64,000 nt of DNA from Thermoleophilia bacterium (lineage in GTDB: Bacteria > Actinomycetota > Thermoleophilia > RBG-16-64-13). The DNA lies in assembly GCA_026415615.1 (NCBI GenBank), contig JAOAGT010000002.1, forward strand, positions 448,545-512,544, in the 5' to 3' direction. Shown here one piece after another: positions 7,864 through 27,721 of the stretch. A program made the position numbers and the translations under genes. Below the pieces are notes generated by a model. The model saw only the letters and a list, made by a program, of their open reading frames with translations, did not search any database and was not told the DNA's origin. Numbering within the stretch: position 1 is the first letter of the stretch; each line of letters starts with the position of its first letter.

Positions 7864-9591
7864 ATGGGAACAGGGCGCATTCCCCCTCCATATCTCCCTA
7901 AAGACCACTGGGAATACAACCTTTACGAATATCACAAGGGGCTCCCCGACAAGAGTCACTACGAGTTCATCGCTAACACACCCGGGGTCAAGACGGCCGA
8001 ATATTGGAAGGAATGGTGCCAGGCCATTTTCTACGCTGGCACTACCCTTTGCATGTGGAACGCACTCCCCGAGGTTAAAGCGGCCTTTCTGTCACTGTGC
8101 TCGTTTGAGCCAGGCATGAAGGTATTTCTGGTGGGCAAGTATTTGTGGGAAAGCGGTCTAGCGGACGCGGTTCGCTCCCTTGTCGGAGATTCGGGAACTC
8201 TCGGCATCCTTGACATGACTGATCAAGTTCTCGAGACTGTGCGTGAGCTGGGTCCGCGGCGGACGGTTCAGTATGAGGCTGCGGGGGCTACTGGCAGCCG
8301 GGCGGCTAGGCCGTTAGTTTGGCCCTTGACGTGTTTTGACGGACTACCAGAAGGAAGCCTAGACAGAGTGGTTTTCTTCAATGGCGGCGCGCATGTAGCT
8401 AATTGGGAGCATGTGGCGTCAGAGATAAGCCGCGTTCTTGGGGAGCACGGACGACTGGTGATGGCGGAAGCTCCTCTGGGCGGTAGGGAGTTTGAGAATG
8501 CTTTGCATCTCGATTCCCATTATGAGTCTTTCATTCTCAGGGTACTTTCCGGCCTAGGTCTGTCGGAGAATGAGCTTCCGTATGTGGACCCTCGGGGTCT
8601 AAGCGAGCTTCTGCGGCCGCATTTTGCGTGGACCAGGTGGTGGTCACACCGGGGCATTCTCCTGTTGTACGGAGCCAAGGGGAAGCACGGTCACGAGATT
8701 GCCGTGCCTGGGCCGGCAGCTTCACTTCCCTGTTCAGACGAGGCAAGGGGTCCAGTGAGCGCATTTCTCGCCGTCAAACCGGTGACCAGCAGCTGGGAGC
8801 TAATGACTGAGCGGGAAAGAGAGATCTGGGGTGAGACTGTCGAGGATATTCTCACCCCTCACATGGGGAAATGCGTCACCTGGGGAGGGGGATCTCTTTG
8901 CTGGAATTACCGCAACCAGCGGGAGATCACGGACATCATGTGGAGCAACCTCGCCGCAAAGCCCGGAGACAAAGTAATGGTGATCGGGGAGTTTCTGCAC
9001 GACCTGGGCACCCTTGAGGAAGTCAAGAGGCGAGTGGGACCTACCGGCCAGGTTTTCCCTGTTGATATAACTGCTTCGCCTTGCTCTTATGATTACAAAG
9101 GTTGGCAGGCTAAGCGTAAAGCCTACATGGATCTAGGTTCACCTGAGGAGTGGCCCTACGATTTTGCGGATGACTTTCCGGACGAGTTTTTCGACGTGCT
9201 GTTCCTGCCTCAAGGTGTACACCACTGCAACAACTGGCTTAGGGACGCTCCCAGACTTCTGCGCGCAGTCAAAGTTGGCGGGCAGGTCATGGCGATCGAG
9301 TGTGGAATCAACCGTCCGGAGATGGCGCTAGCCAGAGATTTAAGTGCTCTTGTGCAGGTGGTGGGCGACCGGGTGTTTCGCATCGCGCTGCCTGAATGGC
9401 TCGTGGGGCCGTTGAGCCCCGAAGGGCCTCTCCCAGCAGGTACTGGCTATGGCCACGAGGGTCGCCCGTACCATGATGTGCCGACGGCGCATCTTCGCGA
9501 GGCCTTTGGCGCGGGGCTTACGGACGTTTGCAGTTTGGAGTACAAGGGCTGGATCCTCTTCTGGGGGTATAAGGCGCCGCGGACTGTCTAA
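7864..9591 (+). CDS. protein with two tandem class-I methyltransferase-fold halves, function unknown (paralog A)
   Basis: Both halves show a Rossmann-like motif I (KVFLVGKYLWESGL and KVMVIGEFLHDLG) and an acidic beta-2 end (ILDMTD and FPVDIT). Each half also has a post-III motif (DRVVFFNGGAHV...LGEHGRLVM and FDVLFLPQGVHH...VKVGGQVMAIE). It is paralogous to 29360-30883. Confidence 0.55.
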   Translation: MGTGRIPPPYLPKDHWEYNLYEYHKGLPDKSHYEFIANTPGVKTAEYWKEWCQAIFYAGTTLCMWNALPEVKAAFLSLCSFEPGMKVFLVGKYLWESGLADAVRSLVGDSGTLGILDMTDQVLETVRELGPRRTVQYEAAGATGSRAARPLVWPLTCFDGLPEGSLDRVVFFNGGAHVANWEHVASEISRVLGEHGRLVMAEAPLGGREFENALHLDSHYESFILRVLSGLGLSENELPYVDPRGLSELLRPHFAWTRWWSHRGILLLYGAKGKHGHEIAVPGPAASLPCSDEARGPVSAFLAVKPVTSSWELMTEREREIWGETVEDILTPHMGKCVTWGGGSLCWNYRNQREITDIMWSNLAAKPGDKVMVIGEFLHDLGTLEEVKRRVGPTGQVFPVDITASPCSYDYKGWQAKRKAYMDLGSPEEWPYDFADDFPDEFFDVLFLPQGVHHCNNWLRDAPRLLRAVKVGGQVMAIECGINRPEMALARDLSALVQVVGDRVFRIALPEWLVGPLSPEGPLPAGTGYGHEGRPYHDVPTAHLREAFGAGLTDVCSLEYKGWILFWGYKAPRTV

Positions 9592-9743: not shown

Positions 9744-11111
9744 TCACTGCCCCGGCCACGGTGGCTTCGGGTAAATGGGTTTAGCTGTCCGCTTTGGCCC
9801 TGGGTCTATTACCTCGATCACCCCGTTTTGCCACTGGCCGATGAAGCCAGCGTAACAATCGCGGGCAAGAAGCTGGTTCTCAAACCAAGTATCTCCCAGC
9901 ACAGTCTGGAAATGCTCAGTCTTTAGGACCTCAGCCACTTTCTTGTTGTCCAAAGTGCCGGCCTTTTCGATAGCTTGCTTCAACATGTCAAGCGCAGCCA
10001 CAAAGTAGGCATAGCCGTAGTAGTTCATGTTGGCTTCGGTTCCGACTCTTTGCAGCAGCTTGTCGTGGAGTTGAGCAAGAGCAGGTGAGCTATGCACGCT
10101 CCAGACTCCATAGCCGCAGACCCCCTCCACCACTTTGTAGCCTTGTTCTGGTCCTTTGTCGCCTCCCATGGCAAACGGGAAAGCGCCAAAGGTTGCTCCG
10201 GGGCCCATTACCAGCATGCGCGGGTTATAGCCCAGTTGCATCATCTGGGCCACCATCGGGAAGTTCTGATCTGGGTAGCAGGGTACGAAGAAGCAGTCAG
10301 GATCAGCCTGCTGCACCTTTCGTAGTATCTGAGTGAAGTCTGCGGTGTTGGCAGGAATTGCCTCGTCATAAAGCAGCTTGATTCCCGCGTTCTTGGCCTC
10401 CTGGCGCATAACCTCGGAGTACTCTAGCCCGTGGAGGTCATCGAGATACACCATAGCTACGCTCTTAACTCCCACTTCCTTGAATATATCGATGAGGGTT
10501 GGGATGTCGTAGTGATTTGAATAGCTGAGCAAGCCAAAGAACATCGGCAAGTCGGGCAGCACCTCTTCAATGCTCTTGGCCCCTGCTTCCCCCGAGATGA
10601 GCAGATAACCGTGGGAGTTCGCCACATTCGCGGCTGCGAAGACAAATGCTGTACTTGCGGGAGAAAGGATGAAGTCCACCTTGTCCTCGACCATAAGCTT
10701 CTCAAGGAGCCGCATGCAGGTGTCCATATCGCTCTGGTCGTCGTAGACTTTCATCTCGATGGGGAGTTTCTTGCCATACTCAGCTACGTAAATGCCGCCT
10801 TCGGCATTGACCTCTTCTACCCACATCTTATAGATGACACCCAAAGCATTTTGCTCGAAGAAGCTTAGTGGTCCAGAGATGGGACGGGCGGCTCCGATGA
10901 CTATCTTGTCTTTTCCGCCCAGAGTGGTGGCAGTAGAAGTTTCTGTACTAGGAGCAGCAGTAGTCGTAGGTCCGGATGTGGTCGAAGGTCCGGCAGTTGT
11001 GCTGGGTGCTGCCGTTGTAGTTGTCTCCTTCTCGCCACAAGCAGCAACCAGCAAGGCGACCGCGGCGAGTATGCATACAACGGCCAGAATTCGTAAGTGT
11101 TTAGATCTCAT
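9744..11111 (-). CDS. ABC-type substrate-binding lipoprotein, LivJ/Peripla_BP_6 family; orphan with no permease or ATPase nearby
   Basis: Lipobox LVAAC, then a Thr/Pro/Ala-rich linker, then a type-I periplasmic binding fold (GxLSFFEQ..., VAMVYLDD...). It is the last gene of the minus-strand operon. Confidence 0.8.
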   Translation of the reverse strand: MRSKHLRILAVVCILAAVALLVAACGEKETTTTAAPSTTAGPSTTSGPTTTAAPSTETSTATTLGGKDKIVIGAARPISGPLSFFEQNALGVIYKMWVEEVNAEGGIYVAEYGKKLPIEMKVYDDQSDMDTCMRLLEKLMVEDKVDFILSPASTAFVFAAANVANSHGYLLISGEAGAKSIEEVLPDLPMFFGLLSYSNHYDIPTLIDIFKEVGVKSVAMVYLDDLHGLEYSEVMRQEAKNAGIKLLYDEAIPANTADFTQILRKVQQADPDCFFVPCYPDQNFPMVAQMMQLGYNPRMLVMGPGATFGAFPFAMGGDKGPEQGYKVVEGVCGYGVWSVHSSPALAQLHDKLLQRVGTEANMNYYGYAYFVAALDMLKQAIEKAGTLDNKKVAEVLKTEHFQTVLGDTWFENQLLARDCYAGFIGQWQNGVIEVIDPGPKRTAKPIYPKPPWPGQ

Positions 11112-11284: not shown

Positions 11285-12025
11285 CTAATACTTGTCTGGA
11301 GCCGCACCGGGGGCCACACCGGGAGGAGGCGTCTGTATCGGTCTGCCGGTAACCGGATGAGAGCAGTGAAAAGGCAGAACCTCGTGCTCTGGCCAGCGGA
11401 GCGGCATTTGGTCGGCTAGTTCATCCGGACCATAAGGATCCTCGGGGTATGTGGTAGTGAGCAACGGTACAAAGTTAGGCGGCGCGAAAGCCCATCCATT
11501 CTCAAAAGTGCTAAACCATACCGGCCGATAGTCAAGCTTCTTGATCCGCCAGATGCCGTCGCGCTTGACGTAGACATTTTCATAGAGCGCCCCTTCCCAC
11601 CACTGTCGCGAGATGGTGGTGGGAGAGGGGTTGCGTTCGTAATGAGTGCCCGCCTGCATCAGAAGACGAAACCGGCCCCACGCTGTCTGCCGGTCGGGGG
11701 CGACGTCGATGACGTCCTGCATCATGGGGTGGTCAAGCAAGAAGCCGAACACAGGGCCATTCTTGCCGTTGGTGAACTGCTCGCGAAATCGCCCGCAGTA
11801 GAGACGGCGCGCACCTTCCTTGCCTCGGTAAATACCGCCGAAAAAATGAACTTCGCAATCGTCGTCGTAGCAATCCACGGCCTCGTCGTACATGCATTTG
11901 TCGATGAAGTAGCCGTAGAGATGCTGAAGCCGGCGAATTGCTTGTATGTCCTCAACCACCCCCAGGCGGTATTCGAGTTCTCTTACTCGCTCGCTAAGCT
12001 TCTCAAGCTCTGCAACCGGATCCAT
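11285..12025 (-). CDS. NTF2-like / SnoaL-like fold protein
   Basis: DIQAIRRLQHLYGYFIDKCMYDEAVDCY..., then a beta-rich C-terminus, typical of the NTF2-like superfamily. GGTGGGGGG RBS. Confidence 0.5.
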   Translation of the reverse strand: MDPVAELEKLSERVRELEYRLGVVEDIQAIRRLQHLYGYFIDKCMYDEAVDCYDDDCEVHFFGGIYRGKEGARRLYCGRFREQFTNGKNGPVFGFLLDHPMMQDVIDVAPDRQTAWGRFRLLMQAGTHYERNPSPTTISRQWWEGALYENVYVKRDGIWRIKKLDYRPVWFSTFENGWAFAPPNFVPLLTTTYPEDPYGPDELADQMPLRWPEHEVLPFHCSHPVTGRPIQTPPPGVAPGAAPDKY

Positions 12026-12066: not shown

Positions 12067-13092
12067 TCAGCTTGCTCCCCGGTACTTCTCAACACCCACC
12101 CCAATAGGCTGGGACATCAAAAAGAAAACTTGCTTTCTTATGTCTCTGATGATCAAAGGTCCCTGACTTACGTTTGGGGGGATATAGGCGAAGAAACTCT
12201 TGGTAATCACGTGCTTCTCGCCCCCAATCCAGAGCTCGACCTCAGCGCAAAGGTCCGTGATGTCCTCGTAGTTAAGACCCAGCATAGCCAGGGAGGTGCC
12301 GTGAGGAACGGCGTGCTCGTCCATGATCACCAACTCCGCCCTTGTCTCTTTGGTGGGCAGATACCATCTGGTGTCACAGCCAAACTCAGCATCAGGGATC
12401 ACGGTCTCGTCAATATAAGCAGCAGGACGAACGTATTCGGGGTCAAGGGGACGCATGTATTCTGGGCGCTTCACATCCGGAGGCGTGCCGAATACTACAT
12501 ACCGGGCGTATTTGGACTCGGCAGGGTCCACGTGTCTGGCCACTGGCGGCTCTTTCTGTTCCTCCTCTGCCTGTTTGGTTTTTTCGTCTTTCTCCCGTGT
12601 GTAGACCCCGCCTGGCCCCGAAGTCCAATGCACGGTCGGGCGGGAGAAATGATGGCCGGTCACCCCTCCTGAGAACACTGGCATATGAGGGAGCCCGGCT
12701 GGTACGTAGGCTACCCAACTGCTTGGGAGGGGAATAATTTCGTCACCCATCTGAATGGCTGTGGGGTCGGTTTTGCTCGGGTCGTCTGGATCGGTTCCCC
12801 ACCAAGAAAGCAGTTCGGGAAAGTCATGGACATGCGGAAACATGGTGGGTGTCTGGTAGCCCAGCTTGGCCAGGTCTTCCCAGGTTACCTGATTGGGATA
12901 GTCAGGAGGCCAAATCCAGGTGGTTTCCCCATAGTAGGCGCCAGGGATCACGTCGTGGTCGATCCAGTGGACATGCTCCATGCTAATCCGCTTCCCTTGG
13001 GCAGCCAGTTGACGCCTCTGCTCTGGGGTGGGGCCGGGCAAGAGGTGCTGCTTCTGCAATGTGGTGCAAATGTACTTGTCAAACTGACCCAT
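12067..13092 (-). CDS. bicupin, a metal-binding double cupin protein, function unknown
   Basis: The N-terminal half has cupin motif 1 (HVHDFPELLSWWG) and motif 2 (PAGLPHMP). The C-terminal half has a degenerate second cupin (HAVPHGTS...GEKHV). It is paralogous to 13137-13634 and 33431-33898. Confidence 0.6.
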   Translation of the reverse strand: MGQFDKYICTTLQKQHLLPGPTPEQRRQLAAQGKRISMEHVHWIDHDVIPGAYYGETTWIWPPDYPNQVTWEDLAKLGYQTPTMFPHVHDFPELLSWWGTDPDDPSKTDPTAIQMGDEIIPLPSSWVAYVPAGLPHMPVFSGGVTGHHFSRPTVHWTSGPGGVYTREKDEKTKQAEEEQKEPPVARHVDPAESKYARYVVFGTPPDVKRPEYMRPLDPEYVRPAAYIDETVIPDAEFGCDTRWYLPTKETRAELVIMDEHAVPHGTSLAMLGLNYEDITDLCAEVELWIGGEKHVITKSFFAYIPPNVSQGPLIIRDIRKQVFFLMSQPIGVGVEKYRGAS

Positions 13093-13136
13093 GGCCTTGT
13101 GCCCTCCCTTGACGTGTATCGCGCAGAACGCGCCGC

Positions 13137-13634
13137 CTATGATGTCCCTTTCCCGTAGGGGATTGTTTCAAAATTCATAACCTTGTGGGGATCGAAGTCC
13201 TTGTCTTGCTCAAAATACGGCTCTCTAGTTCCCTCCGGGCCAGCAAGCATGATCTCAACCTGAATTATGGGCTTGTCCACGCGAGTGACTTCTAACGGGC
13301 AGTGGGGAAGGCCAGGTGGGAGATGGACTAGCGTGGGCCGAGTGAATACGTGTTTTTCCATCTCGGGCCCAAAGTGGAGTACTACCTCAGCCTCAAATTC
13401 ATCGGGGTCTTCGGGATTTCCGCTGTACCAGGCCAGGAACTCGTGAAAATTGTGCGTGTGGCAGGGATTATCTCCTCGAAACGGCTTTCGCACAAACTGC
13501 AGGCCCATAGTAAGGGGAAACCCGAGCTGCTGGTGGCCGATCATAAGACCATCGAAGACTACCGTCCCATCTGACTTCATGCTGAGGCGCAAATGGGGCG
13601 GATGATGAATATATTGGTCATACTTTCCGCTCAT
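13137..13634 (-). CDS. cupin domain protein (paralog of bicupin N-terminal half)
   Basis: HTHNFHEFLAWYSG...VHLPPGLPHCP. I moved the start to MSGKYDQ, which is preceded by GGAGA. The track used 13646. Confidence 0.6.
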   Translation of the reverse strand: MSGKYDQYIHHPPHLRLSMKSDGTVVFDGLMIGHQQLGFPLTMGLQFVRKPFRGDNPCHTHNFHEFLAWYSGNPEDPDEFEAEVVLHFGPEMEKHVFTRPTLVHLPPGLPHCPLEVTRVDKPIIQVEIMLAGPEGTREPYFEQDKDFDPHKVMNFETIPYGKGTS

Positions 13635-13649
13635 GCTCGTCTCCATTGG

Positions 13650-14447
13650 TTACATTACCGATCCGCCTGAGACATGGAACACCTGTCCAGTCACATAGCT
13701 TGTAATGTCCGAGGCGAGGATCGCAATAGCATTTGCCATATCCCGCGCAGTGCCAAACCGGCCAAGCGGAAACTCACCCATGATGGCTGCCTGTCTTCTT
13801 TTCATCTCCTCTGGGGAAATGTTGGGGTCGGGCTCTCTTAGAATGGCTCCGAAGTTAGTGGGCACAGGACCGGGTGCCACACAGTTAACCCGAATTCCGT
13901 TTTTTCCTTCTACATACGCCAACTGCTTGGTGAACAAGTCGACGGCGTATTTGGAGATGGCGTACATACCCACCCCCATTTGGTACTGATGCGTGCTTCC
14001 CGAACCCACGTTCACGATGACCCCGTAGCCTCGTTCGCGCATATGAGGGACCACCGCCTGGGTGACGTTCATCGTGCCAATCAGGTTTAACTTAAGCTGC
14101 TTTTCCCAGACTGTAGGATCTTGCTTTTCGATGGGTACGTTGTCCTTGTGCAGGATAGCTCCGGCCACATTGCAGAGGATGTCAATCCGCCCAAATTCTT
14201 CGAGGACTTTCTGGACCATAGCTTTGACGGCCGCATTGTCAGTGATGTCGGCGCTTAGGGCAATACATCTTGGGCCCAAGCTGCGCACGGTTTCTGCGGT
14301 CTTGGCCAGGTTCTCCTCATCAATGTCTGTTACGGCGATGGCCTCGATCCCTTCCTCGGCCAACACCAAGGCCGTCTCTCTCCCTATCCCCACCTGGCTA
14401 GCTGCGCCCGTTACGAGGGCCACTTTGTTCTTGAAACCCAGATCCAT
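13650..14447 (-). CDS. short-chain dehydrogenase/reductase (SDR)
   Basis: ALVTGAASQVGIG is a TGxxxGxG-like motif. NVAGA, the catalytic YxxxK region (YAISKYAV) and PGPVPT are present. Confidence 0.9.
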   Translation of the reverse strand: MDLGFKNKVALVTGAASQVGIGRETALVLAEEGIEAIAVTDIDEENLAKTAETVRSLGPRCIALSADITDNAAVKAMVQKVLEEFGRIDILCNVAGAILHKDNVPIEKQDPTVWEKQLKLNLIGTMNVTQAVVPHMRERGYGVIVNVGSGSTHQYQMGVGMYAISKYAVDLFTKQLAYVEGKNGIRVNCVAPGPVPTNFGAILREPDPNISPEEMKRRQAAIMGEFPLGRFGTARDMANAIAILASDITSYVTGQVFHVSGGSVM

Positions 14448-14472: not shown

Positions 14473-16320
14473 TTATGGCCACAGCACTTGGGCTATGTCA
14501 TCGAGACCCAGCTCAAGCAGTTTGGCCTTGCTCGGCTTGCCCGTCTTCGTATCCCAGTCCATCTCGACCAGGTACTGATCGTAAATCTCCTCGTGCGTGA
14601 AGGTGATGCCGGCTCGTGGGCCCACGGTCTTGGGCGGTACGCCTCTCATCCTATCGGGGTAGAGGAAAGGCGTCTGGACACCCTCTCTAATGTTGAAGGC
14701 CTGCCTGACGTTGGTGATTCTTTCACCGGTCTTAAGCAGCTCGTCTGCGCTGATGTCCTCCCAGCCGGTCAGGGCTCTCAGAGCTTCGAGCAGTTGGTCC
14801 ACATGTGGATATGCTCCAATCACAAACTGGCAAAGCCCCATGGCGCTTGCTGCGTGCATGAAGTTGGTGCTGATCTTGTGGTAAAGGCCACGGCCGGTAC
14901 GTTGCTCGCGTGGTATATCGGGTATATTCAAGCCTGGTGGGTGTTGCCCGCCTCCCTGATTGTGTCTTCCGGGGGTGGGGTCGCAGCCATAACCAATGGC
15001 AAATCCCCAACCGCCACGAGGGTCGTGACCAGCAATCTCTTGACCGCCAATGTGCATGGCATATTTCTCTGCGCCCCGACCAATCTTCTCGGCCGCGCGC
15101 TTTACGCCGTCGGCGATGATGTCGCCAAAGCCCTCACGCTTGGCCATCTTCTCGACCATTGCCACGATAGCCTTGTGATTGCCCCAGGTCATCTCAAGGC
15201 CGTCTGTGTCCGCCTGAGAAAGCACGCCGTTTTCATAACACTCAATGGTGAAGGCGATGCAAGCACCCGCAGAGATGGTGTCTAGGCCATAACGATTGCA
15301 GATGTCGGCGGCCAGGATGATGGAGTCAAGGTTTGAGTTCAGGAGGTTGCTCCCCAGCATAGCAAGCGTCTCGTACTCGGGTTTATGAGCGCCCTCCTCA
15401 TACTTGTATTCGCCTGTTCCGGCTTTCATTAGGCCCCCGCAGGCAATGGGGCAACGCCAGCAGGCAAAGCGGCGCATCTGCTTTTCTAATACCGCTTGCC
15501 CTCCACAAGCTGCGTAGTCGGGAAGATCGACGGTAACCACACCGGCCCAATTCTTGGCTGGAGCGTCGTCGATTATGCAGCACATCTCGAATATGCCGGG
15601 GGTGCCGGTTTCGTGTAGCTGCTCAGCATGGCCGGTAAGGGCGGCCACGTGCTTTTTTCTGAGCTCTTTCATTAACTCGGGGTTGTAGGCCGGCGGGATG
15701 AGATTGCCCTGGGCCACGATAGCCTTTAGACGCTTGGAGCCCATGACCGCGCCGAGACCTGAACGGGCCGCGGCTCGGCCCTTATTGTTGATTACCCCGC
15801 TAATTAGAGCGAGCTTCTCGCTCGCTGGACCGATGCAGGCTACCTCCAGGTTCTTGCCGTGTTTGGCGCGCAAGATATCTTCAGTTTCTACAGTGTCTTT
15901 CCCCCAAATCTCTGCGGCGTCCAGGAGTTGGGCCTCCCCATTGTGAAGGTAAAGGTAGACCGGTTTCTCGGAAATTCCGGTGAAAAAGACGGCGTCGTAA
16001 CCAGCGAACTTAAGCTGCGGGCCAAAGCTCCCTCCCGAGTTGGCGTCCCCCCATCCTCCGGTGAGAGGAGATTTGCCGACTACTGTGTAGCGGGAGCCGC
16101 CGACTACGTCGGTGCCAGTGGTTATGCCGGTCACAAAACCCAACGTGGCGTCGGGGCCTAGGGGATCTACTCCTGGCTTTTGCCGGTCCCAGAGCACTCG
16201 CGCGCCTAGCCCGTATCCGCCCAGGTATTTGCGGGCGGCCTGTTCGTCGAAAGTATCTACGGTTATCTCGTGGGTTGTAAGATCCACCCAGAGGATTTTC
16301 TCCATAGCTCCAAAAGCCAA
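14473..16320 (-). CDS. tungsten-containing aldehyde:ferredoxin oxidoreductase (AOR family)
   Basis: The N-terminal domain aligns by eye to canonical AORs: KYLGGYGLGARVLW, GGSRYTVVGKSPLTGGWGDANSGG and KFAGYDAVFFTG. The length is 615 aa. TTG start 5 nt after AAGGAGGT. Confidence 0.9.
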   Translation of the reverse strand: MAFGAMEKILWVDLTTHEITVDTFDEQAARKYLGGYGLGARVLWDRQKPGVDPLGPDATLGFVTGITTGTDVVGGSRYTVVGKSPLTGGWGDANSGGSFGPQLKFAGYDAVFFTGISEKPVYLYLHNGEAQLLDAAEIWGKDTVETEDILRAKHGKNLEVACIGPASEKLALISGVINNKGRAAARSGLGAVMGSKRLKAIVAQGNLIPPAYNPELMKELRKKHVAALTGHAEQLHETGTPGIFEMCCIIDDAPAKNWAGVVTVDLPDYAACGGQAVLEKQMRRFACWRCPIACGGLMKAGTGEYKYEEGAHKPEYETLAMLGSNLLNSNLDSIILAADICNRYGLDTISAGACIAFTIECYENGVLSQADTDGLEMTWGNHKAIVAMVEKMAKREGFGDIIADGVKRAAEKIGRGAEKYAMHIGGQEIAGHDPRGGWGFAIGYGCDPTPGRHNQGGGQHPPGLNIPDIPREQRTGRGLYHKISTNFMHAASAMGLCQFVIGAYPHVDQLLEALRALTGWEDISADELLKTGERITNVRQAFNIREGVQTPFLYPDRMRGVPPKTVGPRAGITFTHEEIYDQYLVEMDWDTKTGKPSKAKLLELGLDDIAQVLWP

Positions 16321-16398: not shown

Positions 16399-17715
16399 TT
16401 ACTTGCCGGTCACACTGGGAAGCCATGTCGCTAGCCCCGGGATAAGGAACAGGAGCACTACCATCAGCAGCCCGAGGGCAAAGAACGGCATGGAAGAACG
16501 AAACACCTGCCCCAGGGTAGCATGTGGTGGTGCTATAGCCTTCATAGTGTAAACATCCAGTCCAAACGGCGGAGATATCAGACCAAGCTGGATGTTAAGG
16601 AGAGAAACGACCCCGTACCAGATCAGATCGTACCCGAGGGCCTTAGCCAGCGGGAAGAAGATTGGCACCGTGATCATAACGATGCTGGCCGGATCCATGA
16701 ACATGCCGAGGAAGATAAGAATCACTTGAGTAGCGATGATTATGTAGATGGGGGCAATGTTGGCGCCTGTGGCCATATCGATCAGCTTTTGAATGGCCCC
16801 GGTGGTGGCCAGGATGCGGCTGAAGCTAATTGAGCCCACCACAATGAACATAACCATGACGGTGACGCGTACGCAGCTCATGGCGGATTTCGTTACCGTT
16901 TTCCAGCTTAACTGTCGGTAGAAAGCCGCCAGGACAAAGCAGGCTAACACGCCTAGAGCCGCTGCCTCACTCGGGGTGGCCACACCCAGGTATATGCTTC
17001 CGATCACCGCCAGAATGACAATGCCGATTGGGAGGATGTGGAATGTAAACGTGCGAAGCTTGTCTGTGAGGGAGACCTTTTCCACCTCGTAGGTGGGGGC
17101 AAGCGAAGGATCAAGTTTGCAACGTATCATGATGTAGAGGGCAAAGAGAATGGCCAGAAGCACACCGGGGATGATAATGGCCATGAGCAGCTTCCCTACT
17201 GAAATTTGCCCGATGGCTCCCAAAAAGACGGCAAGCGCGCTCGGTGGGATCAGAATGGCTAGGGTCCCGCTGGTGACGATGGGACCGTAAATCATAGCTG
17301 GTTTGTATCCTCGCGCTTCCATTTCGGGTACTAGTACCCGTCCAAGGATGCCAATCGATCCTCCACTGATGCCAATCATCGTCCCCAGAAGGACGCCGGA
17401 CCCTACGGCGAGTAGGCTTAAGCGGCCGGGCACCTTGCCTAGGAGCTTGTCTACCGCGCCCACTATTCGTGCGCCTGCTCCCGAAGAGAAGATGACGTCT
17501 CCCATCAGCACAAAAAGCGGGATGGGTAAAAACGCATAGTTTGCTACCGCGCTGTAAAAGCTCATTGCCAGCTGATCAAGACCCGGCGCCCCGCCCCAAA
17601 ACAGGACAGAACCAATGATGCACGTGAAGGTGAAAGCGAAACATATGGGCATGCCAGTCATCATGATGACAATGAGGCAACCAAACATGATAAGCAGTGA
17701 CGCCAACCATTCCAT
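16399..17715 (-). CDS. TRAP transporter large permease subunit (DctM family)
   Basis: A 438-aa polytopic membrane protein with the DctM pattern. GGAGG RBS. Confidence 0.9.
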   Translation of the reverse strand: MEWLASLLIMFGCLIVIMMTGMPICFAFTFTCIIGSVLFWGGAPGLDQLAMSFYSAVANYAFLPIPLFVLMGDVIFSSGAGARIVGAVDKLLGKVPGRLSLLAVGSGVLLGTMIGISGGSIGILGRVLVPEMEARGYKPAMIYGPIVTSGTLAILIPPSALAVFLGAIGQISVGKLLMAIIIPGVLLAILFALYIMIRCKLDPSLAPTYEVEKVSLTDKLRTFTFHILPIGIVILAVIGSIYLGVATPSEAAALGVLACFVLAAFYRQLSWKTVTKSAMSCVRVTVMVMFIVVGSISFSRILATTGAIQKLIDMATGANIAPIYIIIATQVILIFLGMFMDPASIVMITVPIFFPLAKALGYDLIWYGVVSLLNIQLGLISPPFGLDVYTMKAIAPPHATLGQVFRSSMPFFALGLLMVVLLFLIPGLATWLPSVTGK

Positions 17716-17724
17716 GGCTGCCTC

Positions 17725-18273
17725 CTACTCTGCTTTACCAGCTGGAGGCTGGGTCTCCGCTGGGGTCGGGGGACTGGTCTGCCGGTAGGCTTTAAAGTAG
17801 TTGACCGCGTGCCTTACTGCCTGGATTGTCAGCACCAGAAACGATATGGGAATGATCATCTCGATGGGCCACTTAACCGGATTAAGCACAGTAGCCAAGA
17901 TGAAGTGGTTGAGGTAGTCGTTGATAGTTAGCCGCGCGGTCAGAAAAAGACATAGGAGGCACAGGGCAACTACTACGCATGAAGTGGCGAAGTTAAGCAA
18001 GTTCTGGGCTCTCTTTGAAAGCATTCCAAGAATGGATTCCATCCTTACATGCCCGTGGTCGCGGTAGATGGCGGCTGTGCCAAGAAAGGTAAGCCACACC
18101 ATCGTGTAGGTCAGAAGCTCATACAAAGGTGCCCAGGTGAAGTCGACTGTCTTTCTGATGATTACGTCCTGTGCTATGGCCAAAGTGTCGAGAAGGATCA
18201 AGATGGCCGAGAGCAGCAGGAGAAAGTTAACAAGCTTGTCAAAAGCTCGGCCAGCTTTCTGTAAGAAGCGCAT
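17725..18273 (-). CDS. TRAP transporter small permease subunit (DctQ family)
   Basis: A 182-aa membrane protein with 4 TM segments. It lies between the DctP-like and DctM-like genes. Confidence 0.8.
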   Translation of the reverse strand: MRFLQKAGRAFDKLVNFLLLLSAILILLDTLAIAQDVIIRKTVDFTWAPLYELLTYTMVWLTFLGTAAIYRDHGHVRMESILGMLSKRAQNLLNFATSCVVVALCLLCLFLTARLTINDYLNHFILATVLNPVKWPIEMIIPISFLVLTIQAVRHAVNYFKAYRQTSPPTPAETQPPAGKAE

Positions 18274-18458
18274 GTCACTAACCTCTCACAGGTTGGTTGA
18301 AGTACGCGCAAGCAGAGAAGCAGAGGGCGCGAAGCGGCCCTGGACAGGGCCGCTTCGCGCCCTCACTTGGGTCTTGCCTGGTTCCGCAGGATGGCAAACC
18401 ACCCCGATCCGCCTAGCCTACGACCTGTCTAGCCTATGGCTGGCTAATCCAGGCACCT

Positions 18459-19610
18459 TTACTTGGCGCGCTCAAAGTCTGGATTCACGAGCCATTCCTT
18501 GAGCTTGGGGCCAATCTCGGGCCACCTCGCGATGTCTTCGGCCCACATCGACTCGCGGTACTTCAGATAGAACTGCTTTGACTCCTCAGGCGACAGGTGA
18601 ATGATCTTAATACCCGCAGCTTCAAGATCTGCCTTTACCTTTTCCACTGTCTTGTGGAAGTGGTCCGCCATGTCAATCTCGGTTTGAATCATGGCTTGGG
18701 TGAGCACGGCCTTTTGTTTCTCAGTGAGGCTCTCCCACTTCTTGAGGTTCATGATCATCATGCCGCCGCAGGAGCTGAACGGCTCGTCCAGCATAGCCTT
18801 GGTCACAGGCGTGAGTCCGAAGTCCTGAATGCCGGGGATGCCGATGTTGTAGCCGTCGACTGTCCCGCGCTCCATGGCTGTGAAGTACTCAGTAAAGTCT
18901 ATGGGCACGCAGACTGCGCCGAGGGCCTCAATGAAGGAACGGTTGGAACCGCCGGTGGCTGCGATCTTGAGCCCCTTCAAGTCAGCTAGGCCGTTGATAA
19001 CCTTGCCGAGGTAAATGACCGTCTGCTCCTGGGGACGAGACGAGACAGAGGCCCCCAAGTACTTGATGCCGTTCTTAGCAAATTCTTCCTCGTAGTACTT
19101 AAAGGCTGGGTTGCCGTTGCGCAGCTCTGGCGGGCTGTATTCAGCTCGCCCGATGGTGCTGCATCCGGGGACCATGGTGTCGCAATAGGCGGACATTACG
19201 CTCGCGATATCCATCGTGCCCCTTTGTACTGCAGCTGGCTGGTCCGGGGCGGGGATAGCCTCTGGGCCGTTGAACTTGATGGTCATCTTGCCAGCCGAGT
19301 ATTCCTGGACCTTGTTAATGAAGTCGCGGTGCCAGTCGGCTCCCGGGGGAATATCGGGCAAGAAGCAGGCCATGGAAAGCTCGATAGGCTCTACATCAGC
19401 AATTACCTGAGGCCCCGACGCAGCTGTCGTTTCTGTAGATGGCGCAGTAGTCTCAGTGGGCGCAGCCGTAGTGGTTGTCGCGGGTGCTTGGGTGGTAGCG
19501 GTGGTAGCCGGTGCGGCTGTGGTTGTGGTGGCTTCTTCCTCTCCGCACGATACCGCCAGGATAGACAGCGCAAGTACACAGCAAATGGCTATTATGGCCA
19601 GTTTCCTCAT
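18459..19610 (-). CDS. TRAP transporter substrate-binding protein (DctP family), probable lipoprotein with Thr-rich linker
   Basis: The start is moved to MRKLAIIAICCVLALSILAVSCGEE. The track ORF extends to 19736. A TTTAAP-type linker precedes a DctP-like fold. Confidence 0.85.
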   Translation of the reverse strand: MRKLAIIAICCVLALSILAVSCGEEEATTTTAAPATTATTQAPATTTTAAPTETTAPSTETTAASGPQVIADVEPIELSMACFLPDIPPGADWHRDFINKVQEYSAGKMTIKFNGPEAIPAPDQPAAVQRGTMDIASVMSAYCDTMVPGCSTIGRAEYSPPELRNGNPAFKYYEEEFAKNGIKYLGASVSSRPQEQTVIYLGKVINGLADLKGLKIAATGGSNRSFIEALGAVCVPIDFTEYFTAMERGTVDGYNIGIPGIQDFGLTPVTKAMLDEPFSSCGGMMIMNLKKWESLTEKQKAVLTQAMIQTEIDMADHFHKTVEKVKADLEAAGIKIIHLSPEESKQFYLKYRESMWAEDIARWPEIGPKLKEWLVNPDFERAK

Positions 19611-19838
19611 GGTGCCCCCCAATCCTAAGATTGCCTGATTTTGCCAAGTCTGCCTGCTGACGTGGAAGTCATTTCTCGCAAGTGCCGAGATGTGCTCTGG
19701 TCCGCTCCAACCTCCTTTGCTCCCGTTTGCTGTCAAGCCGGAACCTGTTGATCAGTGCCTCCCGGTATCGCCAAGCGTATAGCGTGGTGCTCCCGGGCCG
19801 AGACTGCTACTCCGGCGCGCCCGACTATGTTAGTGAGG

Positions 19839-19909
19839 ACTACTAGCACACGCTACTAGCGAATGCAACCGGTCTGTGTTATGTAGGACAGGTAATCGAG
19901 TTACTAGAC
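19839..19909. promoter_or_regulatory. candidate operator: CTACTAGC direct repeats in the 450-bp divergent region between dctP and tetR
   Basis: CTACTAGC occurs at 19840-19847 and 19853-19860. A third copy, TTACTAGAC, is at 19901-19909. Confidence 0.3.
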
Positions 19910-20184
19910 AGCGTTCTTACCAGGGCAAGATGCTTCCCTCGGTACTGGGAATGAAAGGCGTGACACACAACATGGACTACCTTGACTTGCCCGCGGGCAA
20001 GAAAGAAAACACCAAGAAGGATGACGGTACTGGCCCTGAGGGCAACAGTTCGTCGCCACAGACCGGAACCACCCTCACCACCCACACCCGTGAGATCTCG
20101 GGAACTGTAGCTCGCAGTAGTGAGACCGCGGGAACAAACGGAGGAGGCAGCAAGAGGAGCTCCGTATCTCTGCGGTGGAAGACC

Positions 20185-20832
20185 ATGAAGCCCGAACAAA
20201 AGAAGGAGGCGGTTATCAAAGCCGTACTGCGGGTGATAGCCAAACACGGGGTTCAAGGTACCACCACCGCTCGTATCGCTGCAGCTCTGGGGGTATCTGA
20301 GCCGACCATCTACCGAGTTTTCCCGAGCCGGCGGGAAATGCTTCTGGCTGCGGCGCAAAGTCTATGGCGGCAACGCCGTGAAGAGCTCGAGGCGTTTGTT
20401 CCAGTTGACGCTATGGACTATCTAAGGAAGTTATCTGCGCATCACACCGCTGGCATCCAGAAAACCAGAGTAACCCGGTATCTTTACGAGCTTTCGGTTG
20501 CGCGGCCTTCTGATGGACTCCGTGACTACTTGCGCGGGGAAATGATCGCCGAAGCAGAACGTCTTGCGGCTATTGTGGAGCAAGGACAAAAAGAAGGGTG
20601 CATCCGTGCAGACGTAGACCCCGGGGAAACAGCCTGGCGGATCATGACCGTTTACTGGCTTGAGGCTATGGCCCGGCTCCATGGGCTTGAGGACATTCTT
20701 CTCACCGGGTTTTCCACCCGGTTTTTCGACGGGATCCTAACCGACATTGCTGCCGCGCCTCTAGATGCACCAGGTGAGCAGCAAACTGTAGGGCAAAGTA
20801 GCGTCAAAGCGAGCGGTCTTGAGGGAGTGTGA
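20185..20832 (+). CDS. TetR/AcrR family transcriptional regulator
   Basis: KAVLRVIAKHGVQGTTTARIAAALGVSEPTIYRVFPSRREM is the TetR HTH. I moved the start to MKPEQKK. The 103 aa the track puts upstream are low-complexity, so they are not called. Confidence 0.8.
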   Translation: MKPEQKKEAVIKAVLRVIAKHGVQGTTTARIAAALGVSEPTIYRVFPSRREMLLAAAQSLWRQRREELEAFVPVDAMDYLRKLSAHHTAGIQKTRVTRYLYELSVARPSDGLRDYLRGEMIAEAERLAAIVEQGQKEGCIRADVDPGETAWRIMTVYWLEAMARLHGLEDILLTGFSTRFFDGILTDIAAAPLDAPGEQQTVGQSSVKASGLEGV

Positions 20833-20836
20833 ATAG

Positions 20837-22093
20837 ATGGATCACCAGTCTCCGCAAGTCTTGTACCAAGAGAGATTAAAGAGGATTGAGGACGCCATAG
20901 CACTGCGCCAGCCGGATAGAGTCCCGATCGTGATGTCTGCCGGATATTTTCTGGCTGATCTGGGAGGCATTACCAAACAGCAGCTGCTTGAGGACCCTGA
21001 ACTTTGCCAACAGCTGCTAGAAAAGGCCGCCCTTGAATTTCAGCCTGATTCAATCTGGGGTCCTATGCCGGCGGATCCAACTCCCTCCCTTATTCTGGGG
21101 GACAGACAGAGCGCTTGGCCCGGACACCAGCTTTCGCCCAACAGCCAGTTCCAGTTCGTTGAAGGCGAATTCATGAAGGAAGACGAGTACGAGGAATTCC
21201 TGGAAGATCCCACCGACTGGACCATCCGCACCTATTTGCCGCGGGTGTTTGGGGCGCTTGAAAGCTTTGCGCAGCTGCCGCCTCCGATTCTGTTCCTGTT
21301 TGGCGGGGGTTTTGGCCTTTCTAATTTTGCAATGCTGACCTCAGGGGCATTCGCGGAGTCTTTCAAAGCTTTTGCCAAGGCCTTACAGGCGGTAGCCGAA
21401 GGCCATGAGCGGGCAGCCAGAAATCATGAGCGCATGGCGGCGTTGGGTTTTCCGCCGAGCTTCATGAACGGTCCGATTCTAACCGCTCCCTTCGACGTGA
21501 TGTCTGATGCGGTTCGTGGGATGCGCGGCATTATGCTCGACGTTATTCGGCGTCCCGACAAGCTGCTTGCGGCGCAAGAAAAGGTGATGCGCTTTGAGCT
21601 TAAGTGGGCTCTTGATTTTTGCCGGGCTACGGGCGCAAAGAGAGCTTTTCTGCCTCTTCACAGGGGGTCGGATGGCTTCATGTCGCTGAAGCAGTTTGAG
21701 ACCTTGTACTGGCCGCAGCTGAAGAAGGTTCTCGAGACCCTCATAGAGAACGGCGTGACCCCCGTGGTGTTCTACGAAGGCTGCTGGAATCAAAGACTGG
21801 AGTATCTAGCGGAGCTACCCAAGGGCAAGAGCGTAGGATGGTTCCAAGCAAGCGACATCTTCAAAGTCAAGGAAGTGCTTGGCGACACCATGTGCATCAT
21901 GGGGGGGATGCCAAACTCGCTGCTTAAGGCTGGTCCTGCCGAGGAGGTGCGTGCGTTCACCAAACGCCTTTGCGAAGAGGTTGGCAAGGGCGGGGGATTC
22001 ATCATGACCACCGCGGTTGGCGAATTGGCTGGCTGCGATCCGGATCTCATCAAGGTGTGGGTGGAGGCGACCAAGGAATTTGGGAAAGCTTAG
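20837..22093 (+). CDS. uroporphyrinogen-decarboxylase (URO-D) family protein, MtaA/CmuA-like methyltransferase or decarboxylase
   Basis: 418 aa. The N-terminal RLKRIEDAIALRQPDRVPI, then FKVKEVLGDTMCIMGGM, EEVRAFTKRL and GGGFIMTTAVGE resemble the URO-D TIM-barrel family used by corrinoid-dependent methyltransferases. Confidence 0.5.
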   Translation: MDHQSPQVLYQERLKRIEDAIALRQPDRVPIVMSAGYFLADLGGITKQQLLEDPELCQQLLEKAALEFQPDSIWGPMPADPTPSLILGDRQSAWPGHQLSPNSQFQFVEGEFMKEDEYEEFLEDPTDWTIRTYLPRVFGALESFAQLPPPILFLFGGGFGLSNFAMLTSGAFAESFKAFAKALQAVAEGHERAARNHERMAALGFPPSFMNGPILTAPFDVMSDAVRGMRGIMLDVIRRPDKLLAAQEKVMRFELKWALDFCRATGAKRAFLPLHRGSDGFMSLKQFETLYWPQLKKVLETLIENGVTPVVFYEGCWNQRLEYLAELPKGKSVGWFQASDIFKVKEVLGDTMCIMGGMPNSLLKAGPAEEVRAFTKRLCEEVGKGGGFIMTTAVGELAGCDPDLIKVWVEATKEFGKA

Positions 22094-22123
22094 CAAAGCA
22101 CAGGAAAGCTTAGGAATGAAACC

Positions 22124-22858
22124 ATGGACCTCAAGTTGAAGGATAAAGTTGCGCTCGTTACAGGAGCAGGGAGTCCCATAGGCTATGGCAGGGCAATTGC
22201 TCTCACCCTGGCCGAAGAGGGCTGTCGAGTTGCCTGTGCTGACCTACGACTTGACTGGGCAGAGGAGACCGCTGCCCTAATCAGAGAGGCAGGCGGCGAA
22301 GCCTTCGCAGTCAAGGTTGACGTGACCGACATGGCCCAGGTGGAGGCCATGGTGGAGGCGGTTGTTGCCCGATACGGGCGGATCGACATTCTCGTTAACA
22401 ACGCTGGCAAAAGCAGCATCGACAAACCTTTCATGGAAAAGACCCGGGCAGACTGGGATCTCGATATTCAGGTGAATTTGTATGGCCAAATGAACGTGGC
22501 GCGCGCAGTGATTCCTCACATGGCCAGGCAAGGCTATGGGCGCATCATTAACACTTCCGGCGGGCAGGGCTTGCCGACCGTATCCACTTACGGAGCAGCC
22601 AAAGCAGGGGTGGAAGCATTTACACATTCGTTGGCCATGGAGGTTGCCTCCTTGGGGATCATCGTAAACGCCATTGCCCCGGGGCTGGGGGAGACCGGCC
22701 TGATTTCGGCCAGCGAAGAACACAAAGAGGGGTATCGGCGTATGTCGGCCCTAAAACGCCTTTGCACTCCAGCCGACGTGGCACCTGCGGTGGCGTTTCT
22801 AGCTTCGGATGTTTGTAGCTACATGGTTGGGCAGTGCCTCAGGTTGAGTACCCACTAG
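22124..22858 (+). CDS. short-chain dehydrogenase/reductase (SDR), FabG-like
   Basis: ALVTGAGSPIGYG, NNAG, YGAAKAG (YxxxK) and PG. Confidence 0.9.
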   Translation: MDLKLKDKVALVTGAGSPIGYGRAIALTLAEEGCRVACADLRLDWAEETAALIREAGGEAFAVKVDVTDMAQVEAMVEAVVARYGRIDILVNNAGKSSIDKPFMEKTRADWDLDIQVNLYGQMNVARAVIPHMARQGYGRIINTSGGQGLPTVSTYGAAKAGVEAFTHSLAMEVASLGIIVNAIAPGLGETGLISASEEHKEGYRRMSALKRLCTPADVAPAVAFLASDVCSYMVGQCLRLSTH

Positions 22859-26367: not shown

Positions 26368-26429
26368 GCTTTGCTTCTGAGGCGAGGCCTGTTGGTGAGA
26401 CATTGGTCGTAGCAGAAGGAAGGAGCGAG

Positions 26430-27704
26430 ATGGCATTAGAAGATTACGCCGGTGACATGAACATGTGTTGCCGCTGCTCGGCATGCAAGTTCATACCACT
26501 GCAGATGATCAAAGGGTATAAGCATGCCTATGTGTGCCCCAGCATCTCCCGGTACAACTTCCACTTCTTCTCTGGCGGCGGCAGACTGAACCTGGGGGTG
26601 GCGGGGCTGGAGCAGGGGTTCAAATACACGCCCTGGTACCTCTCCAGTGTCTATAACTGTCAGCAATGCGGCGCCTGCGACGTGTCCTGCAAGTACGGCA
26701 TGGACATGGAGGTCCTGCTTCCCATCCAGGAGCTTCGCATCAAGGCAGTGGAAGACGGGCATGCGCATCCGGCTCTGGCGCGCGTGGTGGAGCGGATGAA
26801 CAAGACCGGGAGCATGGTCCCCATGGAAGGGGCAAGCCGTGGGGACTGGGCTGCGGACTTGGGCCTCAAAGACGCCACCCAAGAGAAGGTGGAGGTTCTC
26901 TACCACGTAGGGTGCCTGACCAGCTTTGATAAGGATATGCAGGCGGTGGCTCGGGCGACGGCCAAGGTACTTGGCGCGGCCGGGATTGACTTTGGCATCC
27001 TGGGCGATGCCGAGACCTGCTGTGGGGGGCGCGCCTACGAGATGGGCCACAAGAATGACTTCATGACTCAGGCCAAGAAGAGCATGGAGGTCATCCGGTC
27101 CACTGGGGCAAAATTCCTGGTCACGAGCTGCGCCGAGTGCTACCAGGCCTACAAGGTTCTCTACGATCGTTTTGGCCTACGGAATGATTCGGAGCTTAAG
27201 GTTCTCCATACCTCTCAGCTTCTAGACGAGGTGATAAGCCAGGGCAACCTCAAGCTAAGTGGCCGGGTCGATCTGTGTGTTACTTATCACGATCCTTGCC
27301 ATCTGGGCAGACTAGGAGAGCCCTGGATCCACTGGCAGGGTAAAAAAGTGCCGGGCGACCGCTTCATCTTTGACCCGCCGAAGCCTTACCGCCGCGGCAC
27401 TAACGGGGTATACGAGCCGCCGCGCCGGGTGCTAAAAAGCGTACCCGGGGTGATTCTCGAGGAGATGGACCGCATAAAGGAATACGCGTGGTGCGCTGGT
27501 TCGTGCGGTGGTGTTACCGACTCCAATCCGGAGTTTGCCGAATGGACCGCCGAGCAGCGTCTCGAAGAGGCGCTCTGCACAGGCGCGGAGGCGATTGTCT
27601 CGGCTACCCCGTGGGGCGAGAAGCTCCTGCGCGATGTCGCAAAGAAGAACGACGTGCAGCTCGAGGTTTATGACCTTGTTGAACTGGTCGCCCAGGCTAT
27701 CTAG
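26430..27704 (+). CDS. Fe-S oxidoreductase with two 4Fe-4S motifs and two CCG domains (GlcF/HdrD-like)
   Basis: CxxCxxC..CP and CQQCGACDVSC, then CCGG and CAGSCGG cysteine-rich CCG motifs. I moved the start to MALEDY, which is preceded by AGGAAGGAG. Confidence 0.75.
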   Translation: MALEDYAGDMNMCCRCSACKFIPLQMIKGYKHAYVCPSISRYNFHFFSGGGRLNLGVAGLEQGFKYTPWYLSSVYNCQQCGACDVSCKYGMDMEVLLPIQELRIKAVEDGHAHPALARVVERMNKTGSMVPMEGASRGDWAADLGLKDATQEKVEVLYHVGCLTSFDKDMQAVARATAKVLGAAGIDFGILGDAETCCGGRAYEMGHKNDFMTQAKKSMEVIRSTGAKFLVTSCAECYQAYKVLYDRFGLRNDSELKVLHTSQLLDEVISQGNLKLSGRVDLCVTYHDPCHLGRLGEPWIHWQGKKVPGDRFIFDPPKPYRRGTNGVYEPPRRVLKSVPGVILEEMDRIKEYAWCAGSCGGVTDSNPEFAEWTAEQRLEEALCTGAEAIVSATPWGEKLLRDVAKKNDVQLEVYDLVELVAQAI

Positions 27705-27721
27705 GAAGGAGGTCGAAAGCC

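Follow-up and report, generated by a model that had tools for sequence, protein, structure and literature searches.

Which reaction is carried out by a group of unnamed cupins from an uncultured actinobacterium, and what ties them to the enzymes encoded beside them? The question is raised by a 64,000-nt stretch of the Thermoleophilia bacterium metagenome-assembled genome (MAG) GCA_026415615.1 (contig JAOAGT010000002.1, positions 448,545 to 512,544), hereafter the window, which has a G+C content of 56.4% and encodes three cupins that we term A, B and C. According to our analysis they are paralogs and form an unnamed, strongly diverged clade within the Cupin_2 superfamily. With a confidence clearly short of even, we posit that they may act as O2-independent, metal-assisted epimerases or keto-enol/ketol isomerases next to the carbonyl of a partner short-chain dehydrogenase/reductase (SDR).

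Three cupin paralogs without a family name

12067-13092, minus strand: A, a 341-aa bicupin of the unnamed family, with 100% identity to the 'hypothetical protein' N3B14_05035 of a Thermoleophilia bacterium MAG
13137-13634, minus strand: B, a 165-aa single-barrel cupin of the unnamed family
33431-33898, plus strand: C, a 155-aa single-barrel paralog, with 100% identity to the 'hypothetical protein' N3B14_05135 of the same MAG

The longest open reading frame (ORF) for B spans 13137-13646, and the start of C at 33431 likewise sits within a longer ORF. For B, we prefer the inner start at 13634 over 13646, because a GGAG lies 6 nt upstream of it and because the homologs begin with M-x-GKYD.

An earlier reading made from the sequence alone (the sequence-only reading) had described three cupin paralogs here, and ORFs, pairwise BLASTP, a family hidden Markov model (HMM) and a composite signature all confirm them. 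B and C align at 3e-11, and the N-terminal half of A aligns with C at 9e-10 and with B at 7e-8; the corresponding values for its C-terminal half are 5e-7 and 4e-6. Among all window ORFs of at least 70 aa, the three-subfamily HMM matches A, B and C alone, and A twice. The signature H.H...E.{6,9}[DN]P..P.{20,40}P.G..H.P occurs three times in the six-frame translation of the window, once each in A, B and C, which share the core NP.H.H...E ... [DN]P..P ... P.G..H.P. The similarity is well beyond chance, and the three are true paralogs. The motif patterns of the sequence-only reading need some loosening. Its third motif (P.G[LM].H.P) is present in all three proteins (PPGLPH, PAGLPH and PKGMKH), while the other two were drawn too tightly: motif 1 of B, HTHNFHEF, ends in F instead of L and falls outside H[VT]H[DN][FY].EL, and the loop pattern [GS][TN][DN]P[DE][DN]P literally fits A alone (GTDPDDP), with GNPEDP in B and SDPENP in C.

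The AlphaFold2 models are confident, with a pLDDT of 91 for B (a cupin) and 89 for A (a bicupin), and show the double-stranded beta-helix, or small beta-barrel, of the cupin fold; A carries two such barrels in one chain through internal duplication. In structure searches the B model matches cupins alone, and A and B together match cupins and bicupins alone, which upholds the fold assignment of the sequence-only reading. Both searches with B are headed by MarH and 7EQK. Cupin motif 1, G(X)5HXH(X)3-4E(X)6G, reads G58-DNPC-H63-T-H65-NFH-E69-FLAWYS-G76 in B, an exact match apart from the first spacer, which lacks one residue; in A and C, H.H...E is kept and S or T stands in place of the final G. 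From motif 2, G(X)5PXG(X)2H(X)3N, all three proteins keep P.G..H, and the flanking G and final N are not conserved, with H.P in their place.

None of the three proteins matched a Pfam or NCBIfam model at E<=1, and a phmmer search of PDB sequences returned no match to them. The view that this is an unnamed clade of unknown function thus stands, as these profile and PDB searches place A, B and C in no named or characterised family. Sequence models of KduI, KdgF and the cupin-type sugar isomerases (cPGI, PMI, lyxose isomerase) were likewise unmatched by the family. Its link to Pfam Cupin_2 (PF07883) is transitive and runs through distant family members, 39 of 89 representatives of which reach that model at E<=0.01 (best 1.2e-9), a threshold that A, B and C themselves do not reach. 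Ten long members and the 89 scanned representatives contain no domain fusions other than C-C tandem bicupins. In the literature we searched, there is no description of this family or of a cupin in AOR/TRAP or LdpA-type clusters (see below), and no link between cupins and anaerobic cleavage of polyphenol rings.

Metal site and acidic loop

12598-12987, minus strand: N-terminal barrel of A (about residues 36-165), with the full ligand set H87, H89, E93 and H136 (codons 12832-12834, 12826-12828, 12814-12816 and 12685-12687) and the loop GTDPDDP
12070-12477, minus strand: C-terminal barrel of A (about residues 206-341), a degenerate copy in which the four ligand positions read H/V/T/Q
13302-13460, minus strand: ligands of B in 169-aa numbering, H63, H65, E69 and H115 (codons 13458-13460, 13452-13454, 13440-13442 and 13302-13304), with the loop GNPEDP
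33617-33769, plus strand: ligands of C, H63, H65, E69 and H113 (codons 33617-33619, 33623-33625, 33635-33637 and 33767-33769)

The canonical His-His-Glu...His site attributed to all copies is found in B, in C and in the N-terminal barrel of A. By hmmalign column mapping, three of the four ligands are missing from the C-terminal barrel of A, which reads H/V/T/Q, so that within A a canonical site is possible in the N-terminal barrel alone. The C-terminal barrel has invariant residues of its own, namely H260, E284, E286 and E292. Among 39 orthologs of A, H87, H89 and E93 are invariant and H136 is at least 90% conserved, and across the B, C and A N-terminal subfamilies N60, P61, H63, H65, E69, P78, P110, H115, P117 and P126 (B numbering) are invariant. 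The sequence-only reading had staked its case on the ligands being conserved across homologs, and they are: beyond the close subfamilies, where they are invariant, 261 domains from 150 distant representatives retain H63 at 72%, H65 at 85%, E69 at 77% (plus 10% Gln) and H115 at 87%. From this pattern we infer that these cupins bind metal. A mononuclear site for a divalent metal, formed by three His and one Glu in every functional barrel, is a plausible prediction, which we hold with reserve.

The acidic loop, which had been read as a family-specific insert, is indeed conserved. It comprises ten residues with the consensus G/S/T-[DN]-P-x-[DN]-P, directly after motif 1 and between two strands of the model, and it is a lengthened inter-motif loop and not a separate insertion.

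Family size and hosts

A profile search of 1.84 billion cluster representatives (clusters at 50% identity) places the family at no fewer than 1,354 clusters at E<=1e-3 and 835 at E<=1e-10, most of them two-domain proteins of about 300 aa. The homologs of B (203), A (320) and C (524) are all unnamed or 'hypothetical' and nearly all lack a Pfam domain, in the B set without exception. A tblastn search of 72,556 plasmids gave no match to the family.

Hosts and synteny were assessed on 80 genome loci that encode relatives of A (72 after removing duplicates). All 80 are from MAGs: 46 from Dehalococcoidia, 10 from other Chloroflexota, 18 from Actinomycetota, five from Desulfobacterota and one from Leptospirales. 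The same loci also encode a tungsten-type aldehyde:ferredoxin oxidoreductase (AOR), pyruvate:ferredoxin oxidoreductase (PFOR), an Hdr/Mvh-type hydrogenase and multihaem cytochromes. Most of the hosts are therefore probably anaerobes, which disfavours dioxygenation, one of the reactions suggested for these cupins.

The operon of A and B

16399-19736, minus strand: tripartite ATP-independent periplasmic (TRAP) transporter DctP-DctQ-DctM at the operon head (Pfam DctP/DctQ/DctM)
14473-16320, minus strand: tungsten-type AOR of the canonical AOR clade (Pfam AFOR_N and AFOR_C)
13650-14447, minus strand: SDR (Pfam adh_short), directly upstream of B with a 15-nt gap, the most constant partner of the family
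11285-12025, minus strand: LdpA-like NTF2/SnoaL_4 protein (Pfam SnoaL_4), directly downstream of A with a 41-nt gap
9744-11111, minus strand: Peripla_BP_6 solute-binding lipoprotein (Pfam) at the operon tail, found also in locus L084 and, with C-type arrays, in L089

A and B are part of a minus-strand operon with the order DctP-DctQ-DctM, AOR, SDR, B, A, SnoaL_4 protein and Peripla_BP_6, separated by gaps of 9-185 nt. A promoter and terminator scan of the operon yielded sites no more frequent than in shuffled sequence. C is monocistronic in the window, between SIMPL and Usp genes.

The AOR has its best PDB match in P. furiosus AOR (1AOR, 3e-97). We rejected the possibility that it is a BamB-type ring reductase, as BamB is matched less closely (3e-56). 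For the TRAP binding protein there is no close ligand-defined homolog (best 4MNC, 2e-22); the presence of a TRAP transporter would imply a carboxylate substrate. No specific NCBIfam equivalog was found for the SDRs of the window, and in an NCBIfam scan of ten neighbour proteins all stayed under the curated cut-offs.

The protein directly downstream of A resembles LdpA, an NTF2-family lyase of sphingomonads that converts the beta-1 lignin dimer erythro-DGPD to lignostilbene and formaldehyde. It matches the LdpA structures 8ABV and 8ABT at phmmer E-values of 2e-56 and 4e-54 and is 43.5% identical to LdpA over 216 residues. Compared with the published active site (PMC9942872), seven of nine residues are kept (Y35, D40, Y74, H97, E143, Y147 and Y165), among them the His97-Asp40 dyad, Glu143 and the oxyanion tyrosines; the two changes are Gln170 to Phe, in the triad, and His183 to Asn. 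LdpA takes erythro isomers alone, and Sphingobium uses pairs of SDRs to invert the threo isomers beforehand, by way of a C-alpha ketone. The SDR gene ldpB lies directly upstream of ldpA in Sphingobium SYK-6, and DCA-C, a carboxylated beta-5 compound, is the substrate of a related lyase, PcfL. To our knowledge, LdpA is the only cofactor-free deformylase of lignin dimers. It was unexpected that, in the MAG of an uncultured actinobacterium, an LdpA-type lyase and a tungsten AOR should share one operon.

Conservation of the neighbourhood

Among the 72 loci, an SDR lies within 5 kb of A at 28, a family paralog at 26 and an orthologous AOR at 19, the last in Actinomycetota, Chloroflexota, Dehalococcoidia and Desulfobacterota. 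TRAP genes (within 6 kb) accompany A at 13 loci, an LdpA-like gene (within 3 kb) at ten and GlcDEF-like genes (within 6 kb) at eight, and 27 loci have none of these partners near A. AOR, SDR, B and A form a module that is found again in more than one phylum. In about 12 loci of Actinomycetota the whole order TRAP-AOR-SDR-B-A-SnoaL_4 is syntenic, its TRAP genes included, which bears out the placement of A and B inside a conserved catabolic operon. In Chloroflexia the order is AOR-SDR-(enolase-superfamily enzyme)-B with A nearby, and the identities to the window proteins are 57/65/65-70/56-58%. In another actinobacterial locus (L004/L005) A comes straight after AOR and overlaps it by 4 bp; in Desulfobacterota, too, the two genes are adjacent. 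SDR orthologs adjoin B or A in both Actinomycetota and Chloroflexota, and an SDR-B pair was also found with a nearby unannotated gene of the size of A (338 aa, no Pfam match).

Several of these loci add further genes to the module. In L004 (8157-12215) and L005 a radical-SAM/SPASM gene follows AOR-A, with genes for electron-transfer flavoprotein (ETF) alpha/beta, GlcD-like/CCG/GlcD-like proteins, an SDR and MmgE/PrpD on the other side. An enolase-superfamily enzyme of the MLE/dipeptide-epimerase subgroup is part of the module in Chloroflexota (L061 4794-15806; L055, L056, L058, L086) and with second A copies in Actinomycetes (L019-L022); it is very close to a structure of unknown function, 2QDE (E 3e-123). 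Beside A in those loci are genes for a PIG-L deacetylase and SBP_bac_5 and, once, for a CobW metallochaperone. A sugar-acid pathway of the KduI/KdgF/KduD kind was considered and rejected, since this enolase-superfamily enzyme falls in the MLE/dipeptide-epimerase subgroup and not among the acid-sugar dehydratases, and since there is no match to KduI.

Two further units of the window, both on the plus strand, have counterparts among the relatives.

19876-22858, plus strand: TetR, URO-D-like protein and second SDR (Pfam), a divergent unit upstream of the operon and syntenic with it in relatives
24901-29212, plus strand: FAD_binding_4, CCG and FAD_binding_4 (Pfam), a GlcDEF-like 2-hydroxy-acid oxidoreductase

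In relatives an extra B-like cupin gene of about 136 aa lies between the URO-D-like gene and the second SDR (L001 1022-1432; L008, L009, L010, L013, L014, L082). It is absent from the window, where this gap measures 30 nt (22094-22123). Orthologs of the GlcDEF-like genes (69/64/72% identity) are found directly upstream of A in the Chloroflexi locus L047, and GlcDEF-like genes are near A also in L004, L016, L064, L073 and L079.

Elsewhere the C family forms translationally coupled arrays, for example 154, 156 and 156 aa, SDR, a 306-aa bicupin, 157 aa, SDR and IclR. L088 (8001-14128; likewise L089 and L090) has five family genes with six barrels plus an unmatched 156-aa ORF, two interleaved SDRs, and then IclR. 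Several 4-bp start/stop overlaps in the L088 array suggest hetero-oligomeric assemblies of paralogous cupins. In L087 (5869-16462) a pair of C-type cupins directly follows a 704-aa flavoenzyme of the old yellow enzyme type (Oxidored_FMN and Pyr_redox_2). Three URO-D-family genes and a pterin-binding/CdhD-like gene lie nearby, and the whole recalls corrinoid-dependent O-demethylase systems.

Other genes of the window

Beyond the operon, an 834-aa molybdopterin oxidoreductase with an N-terminal domain annotated as 'pyrogallol hydroxytransferase large subunit-like' is encoded in 40736-44093 (minus strand), together with a 283-aa partner (Fer4_11 and a CarboxypepD_reg barrel) that resembles the Fe-S beta subunit of transhydroxylase. 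Genes for acyl-CoA dehydrogenase, LysR, ETF alpha/beta and ETF-QO lie next to it (44108-50180). An aromatic or phenolic theme for the region is reasonable because of the LdpA homolog and this molybdoenzyme. The general aromatic framing of the sequence-only reading is thus retained, and its particular ring substrates (di- or trihydroxybenzenes and reduced rings) are not, as the partners SDR, tungsten AOR and LdpA-like lyase point to carbonyl or aldehyde chemistry on a side chain.

Two paralogous long ORFs (7864-9591 and 29360-30883, both plus strand; 40% identity over 312 aa, E 2e-66) bracket the entire supercluster of AOR, cupin and GlcDEF-like genes. They have weak Methyltransf_11 matches and no NCBIfam name, and the first resembles a methyltransferase-like unit that has been duplicated within the ORF. 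Further downstream, a second molybdopterin oxidoreductase (51626-54199, plus strand) has an N-terminal Fe4S4 domain and a formate-dehydrogenase-like architecture; the same region contains a radical-SAM gene (50837-51580) and, on the minus strand, a gene for a formate/nitrite transporter (59946-60950).

A possible role in epimerization or isomerization

The proposal that the cupins are epimerases or isomerases is the best supported one because of their MarH-type relatives, the constant partnership with an SDR and the probably anaerobic hosts. The family profile, compared with PDB sequences, reaches MarH (6J4B, 1.2e-3) and 7EQK (2.6e-3) alone below an E-value of 0.01. Next in the match lists are the cupin sugar-phosphate isomerases 3I7D, 3L2H, 1X82 and 7ZVY. 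In beta-methylindolepyruvate, MarH and StnK3 invert the carbon that bears the aryl group and adjoins the 2-keto group (PMC4742848). By analogy, the substrate of the cupins would be a keto intermediate made or consumed by the adjacent SDR; the metal would serve as a Lewis acid that polarises the carbonyl, and the neighbouring carbon would be deprotonated and then reprotonated.

For the operon of the window, we envisage that the TRAP transporter may import a carboxylated phenolic compound, such as a lignin-derived phenylpropanoid or a dimer-type molecule, and that the SDR may oxidise its benzylic alcohol to the ketone. B and/or A would then invert or shift the adjacent centre, and the SDR would reduce the ketone back, so that one SDR plus an epimerase could provide a route to the isomer accepted by the LdpA-like lyase. 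The lyase would eliminate formaldehyde, and the tungsten AOR could oxidise the released formaldehyde or other aldehydes. The analysis demonstrates the paralogy, the predicted folds, the ligand conservation, the size and host range of the family and its gene neighbourhoods; that metal is bound, which reaction and class of substrate are involved and in what order the steps follow is what we infer.

Several points weigh against epimerization or isomerization in this form. The similarity to MarH is weak, and a 3His-1Glu site of this kind is shared by dioxygenases, decarboxylases, lyases and isomerases. The changes Q170F and H183N indicate that the substrate of the LdpA-like protein probably differs from that of LdpA. 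The TRAP transporter implies a carboxylate, yet DGPD, the model substrate of LdpA, is none. Among the loci, the LdpA-like gene and the TRAP transporter are restricted to Actinomycetota, and Chloroflexota carry instead the MLE-subgroup enolase-superfamily enzyme, PIG-L, MmgE/PrpD and SBP_bac_5. The approximately 27 of 72 loci where A has no listed partner within 5-6 kb may indicate that its role is more general.

Alternative functions

The site type and the logic of the pathway would also suit an O2-dependent cupin dioxygenase that cleaves an enol or alkene (LdpA-type stilbene, flavonol or beta-diketone), hands aldehydes or acids to the AOR and so replaces the lignostilbene dioxygenase of aerobes. 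We consider this unlikely, as the carriers are mostly MAGs of Dehalococcoidia and Desulfobacterota, the genes share an operon with an oxygen-sensitive tungsten AOR and are near other enzymes of anaerobe type, the structures of dioxygenases are no closer than those of isomerases or epimerases, and the sole sequence-level PDB matches are epimerases. Another alternative is carbon-carbon cleavage without O2: a metal-dependent retro-aldol lyase, or a ring-opening beta-diketone hydrolase, could use a beta-hydroxy-ketone or a reduced polyphenol ring that the SDR supplies and pass the aldehyde to the AOR. The adjacency and translational coupling of AOR and A suggest that A makes or uses an aldehyde, and there are cupin lyases among the structural neighbours, namely the dimethylsulfoniopropionate lyases DddK and DddQ, the Mn hydroxynitrile lyase 4BIF and 7EQK, termed 'epimerase/lyase' by its depositors. 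The pyrogallol-hydroxytransferase-like Mo enzyme and its Fe-S beta subunit in the window fit such a reaction, as does the known phloroglucinol pathway, where an SDR precedes ring hydrolysis. The hydrolase of that pathway, dihydrophloroglucinol cyclohydrolase, belongs however to the cyclase/isatin-hydrolase family and is not a cupin, and as an identity for A, B or C it was rejected for that reason. We know of no cupin beta-diketone hydrolase, and the conserved module has no thiolase, CoA-transferase or other genes that act downstream of ring fission. We consider cleavage of this kind as unlikely as the dioxygenase.

It is also conceivable that the proteins are not enzymes at all, and instead small-molecule-binding or regulatory cupins, storage or scaffold subunits, or metal-handling accessories for the AOR or SDR. 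Many cupins are non-catalytic, and auxin-binding protein, seed globulins and CENP-C cupins are among the structural matches. The loss of the site in one barrel of A would agree with this, as would the frequent paralog arrays, which could form hetero-oligomers, and the CobW metallochaperone gene adjoining A, an adjacency that was seen at a single locus only. The strong conservation of the four ligands and the surrounding motif in all subfamilies speaks against a non-enzymatic role, and so do the position of the genes between enzymes inside catabolic operons and the lack of a DNA-binding or other fused domain in the ten long members and 89 representatives. We regard it as very improbable, and leave the rest of the probability to functions other than those considered here.

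Implications

Neither Pfam nor NCBIfam detects this large family, and knowledge of its chemistry would put names to thousands of 'hypothetical proteins'. The host lineages dominate anoxic soils, peat and sediments and have few cultured members. Genetic ties connect the cupins with SDRs and tungsten AOR, enzymes that define anaerobic carbonyl metabolism, and in Actinomycetota also with an LdpA homolog. Their chemistry could expose an O2-free processing of lignin-derived or carboxylated compounds and would bear on the 'enzyme latch' view of how peat stores carbon. In the most far-reaching case, to which we give a slim chance, the cupins might be the missing catalysts of an O2-independent route for lignin phenylpropanoids and diaryl compounds in uncultured soil and sediment anaerobes (Actinomycetota, Chloroflexota). 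They would then represent a new class of metal-dependent epimerases/isomerases or C-C lyases that prepare substrates for a formaldehyde lyase of the LdpA type, with the tungsten AOR conserving the electrons of the released aldehydes and the wider family serving other carboxylate pathways. Should the family prove to be an ordinary isomerase in some minor pathway, it is mainly annotation that would benefit.

Comparison with known systems

Among characterised cupins, MarH and StnK3 (6J4B-D, 7EQK) are the closest in kind, though distant: they are small single-barrel proteins with a His/His/Glu/His-type site, and these epimerases work without O2. With Pfam Cupin_2 the family shares the predicted fold and the motif logic of H.H...E and P.G..H. 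The canonical Cupin_2/AraC_binding gene of the window itself (31853-32236, plus strand, 127 aa) is unrelated in sequence, and hhalign gives its alignment with the B family a probability of 0.6%. The bicupins OxdC, quercetin 2,3-dioxygenase, BacB/AerE, YlbA/ureidoglycine aminohydrolase, KduI and IolB share 5-15% identity with A, which no Pfam model matches; OxdC and quercetinase need O2, unlike what the hosts of A suggest. The combination of cupin and SDR in one operon recalls BacB-BacC and KduI-KduD, and membership in those families, or among the MarH-type epimerases, is unsupported.

On the pathway level, dihydrophloroglucinol cyclohydrolase offers a parallel: it depends on a metal and acts after an SDR, phloroglucinol reductase, when polyphenols are degraded anaerobically. 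It corresponds to the ring-opening hydrolysis considered in the sequence-only reading; its pathway partners are, however, absent from the conserved cupin module. The operon is reminiscent of the sphingomonad beta-1/beta-5 pathway (LigD/LigL/LdpB/LdpC, LdpA/PcfL). No stilbene dioxygenase gene was seen in the window, and a 2026 review of the sphingomonad pathway mentions no cupin. Like that pathway, the operon combines an SDR and an LdpA homolog, with only the two cupin genes between them, and an aldehyde-oxidising enzyme. It differs in that a tungsten AOR would take the place of the NAD-dependent dehydrogenase and in that the hosts are uncultured Actinomycetota and not aerobic sphingomonads.

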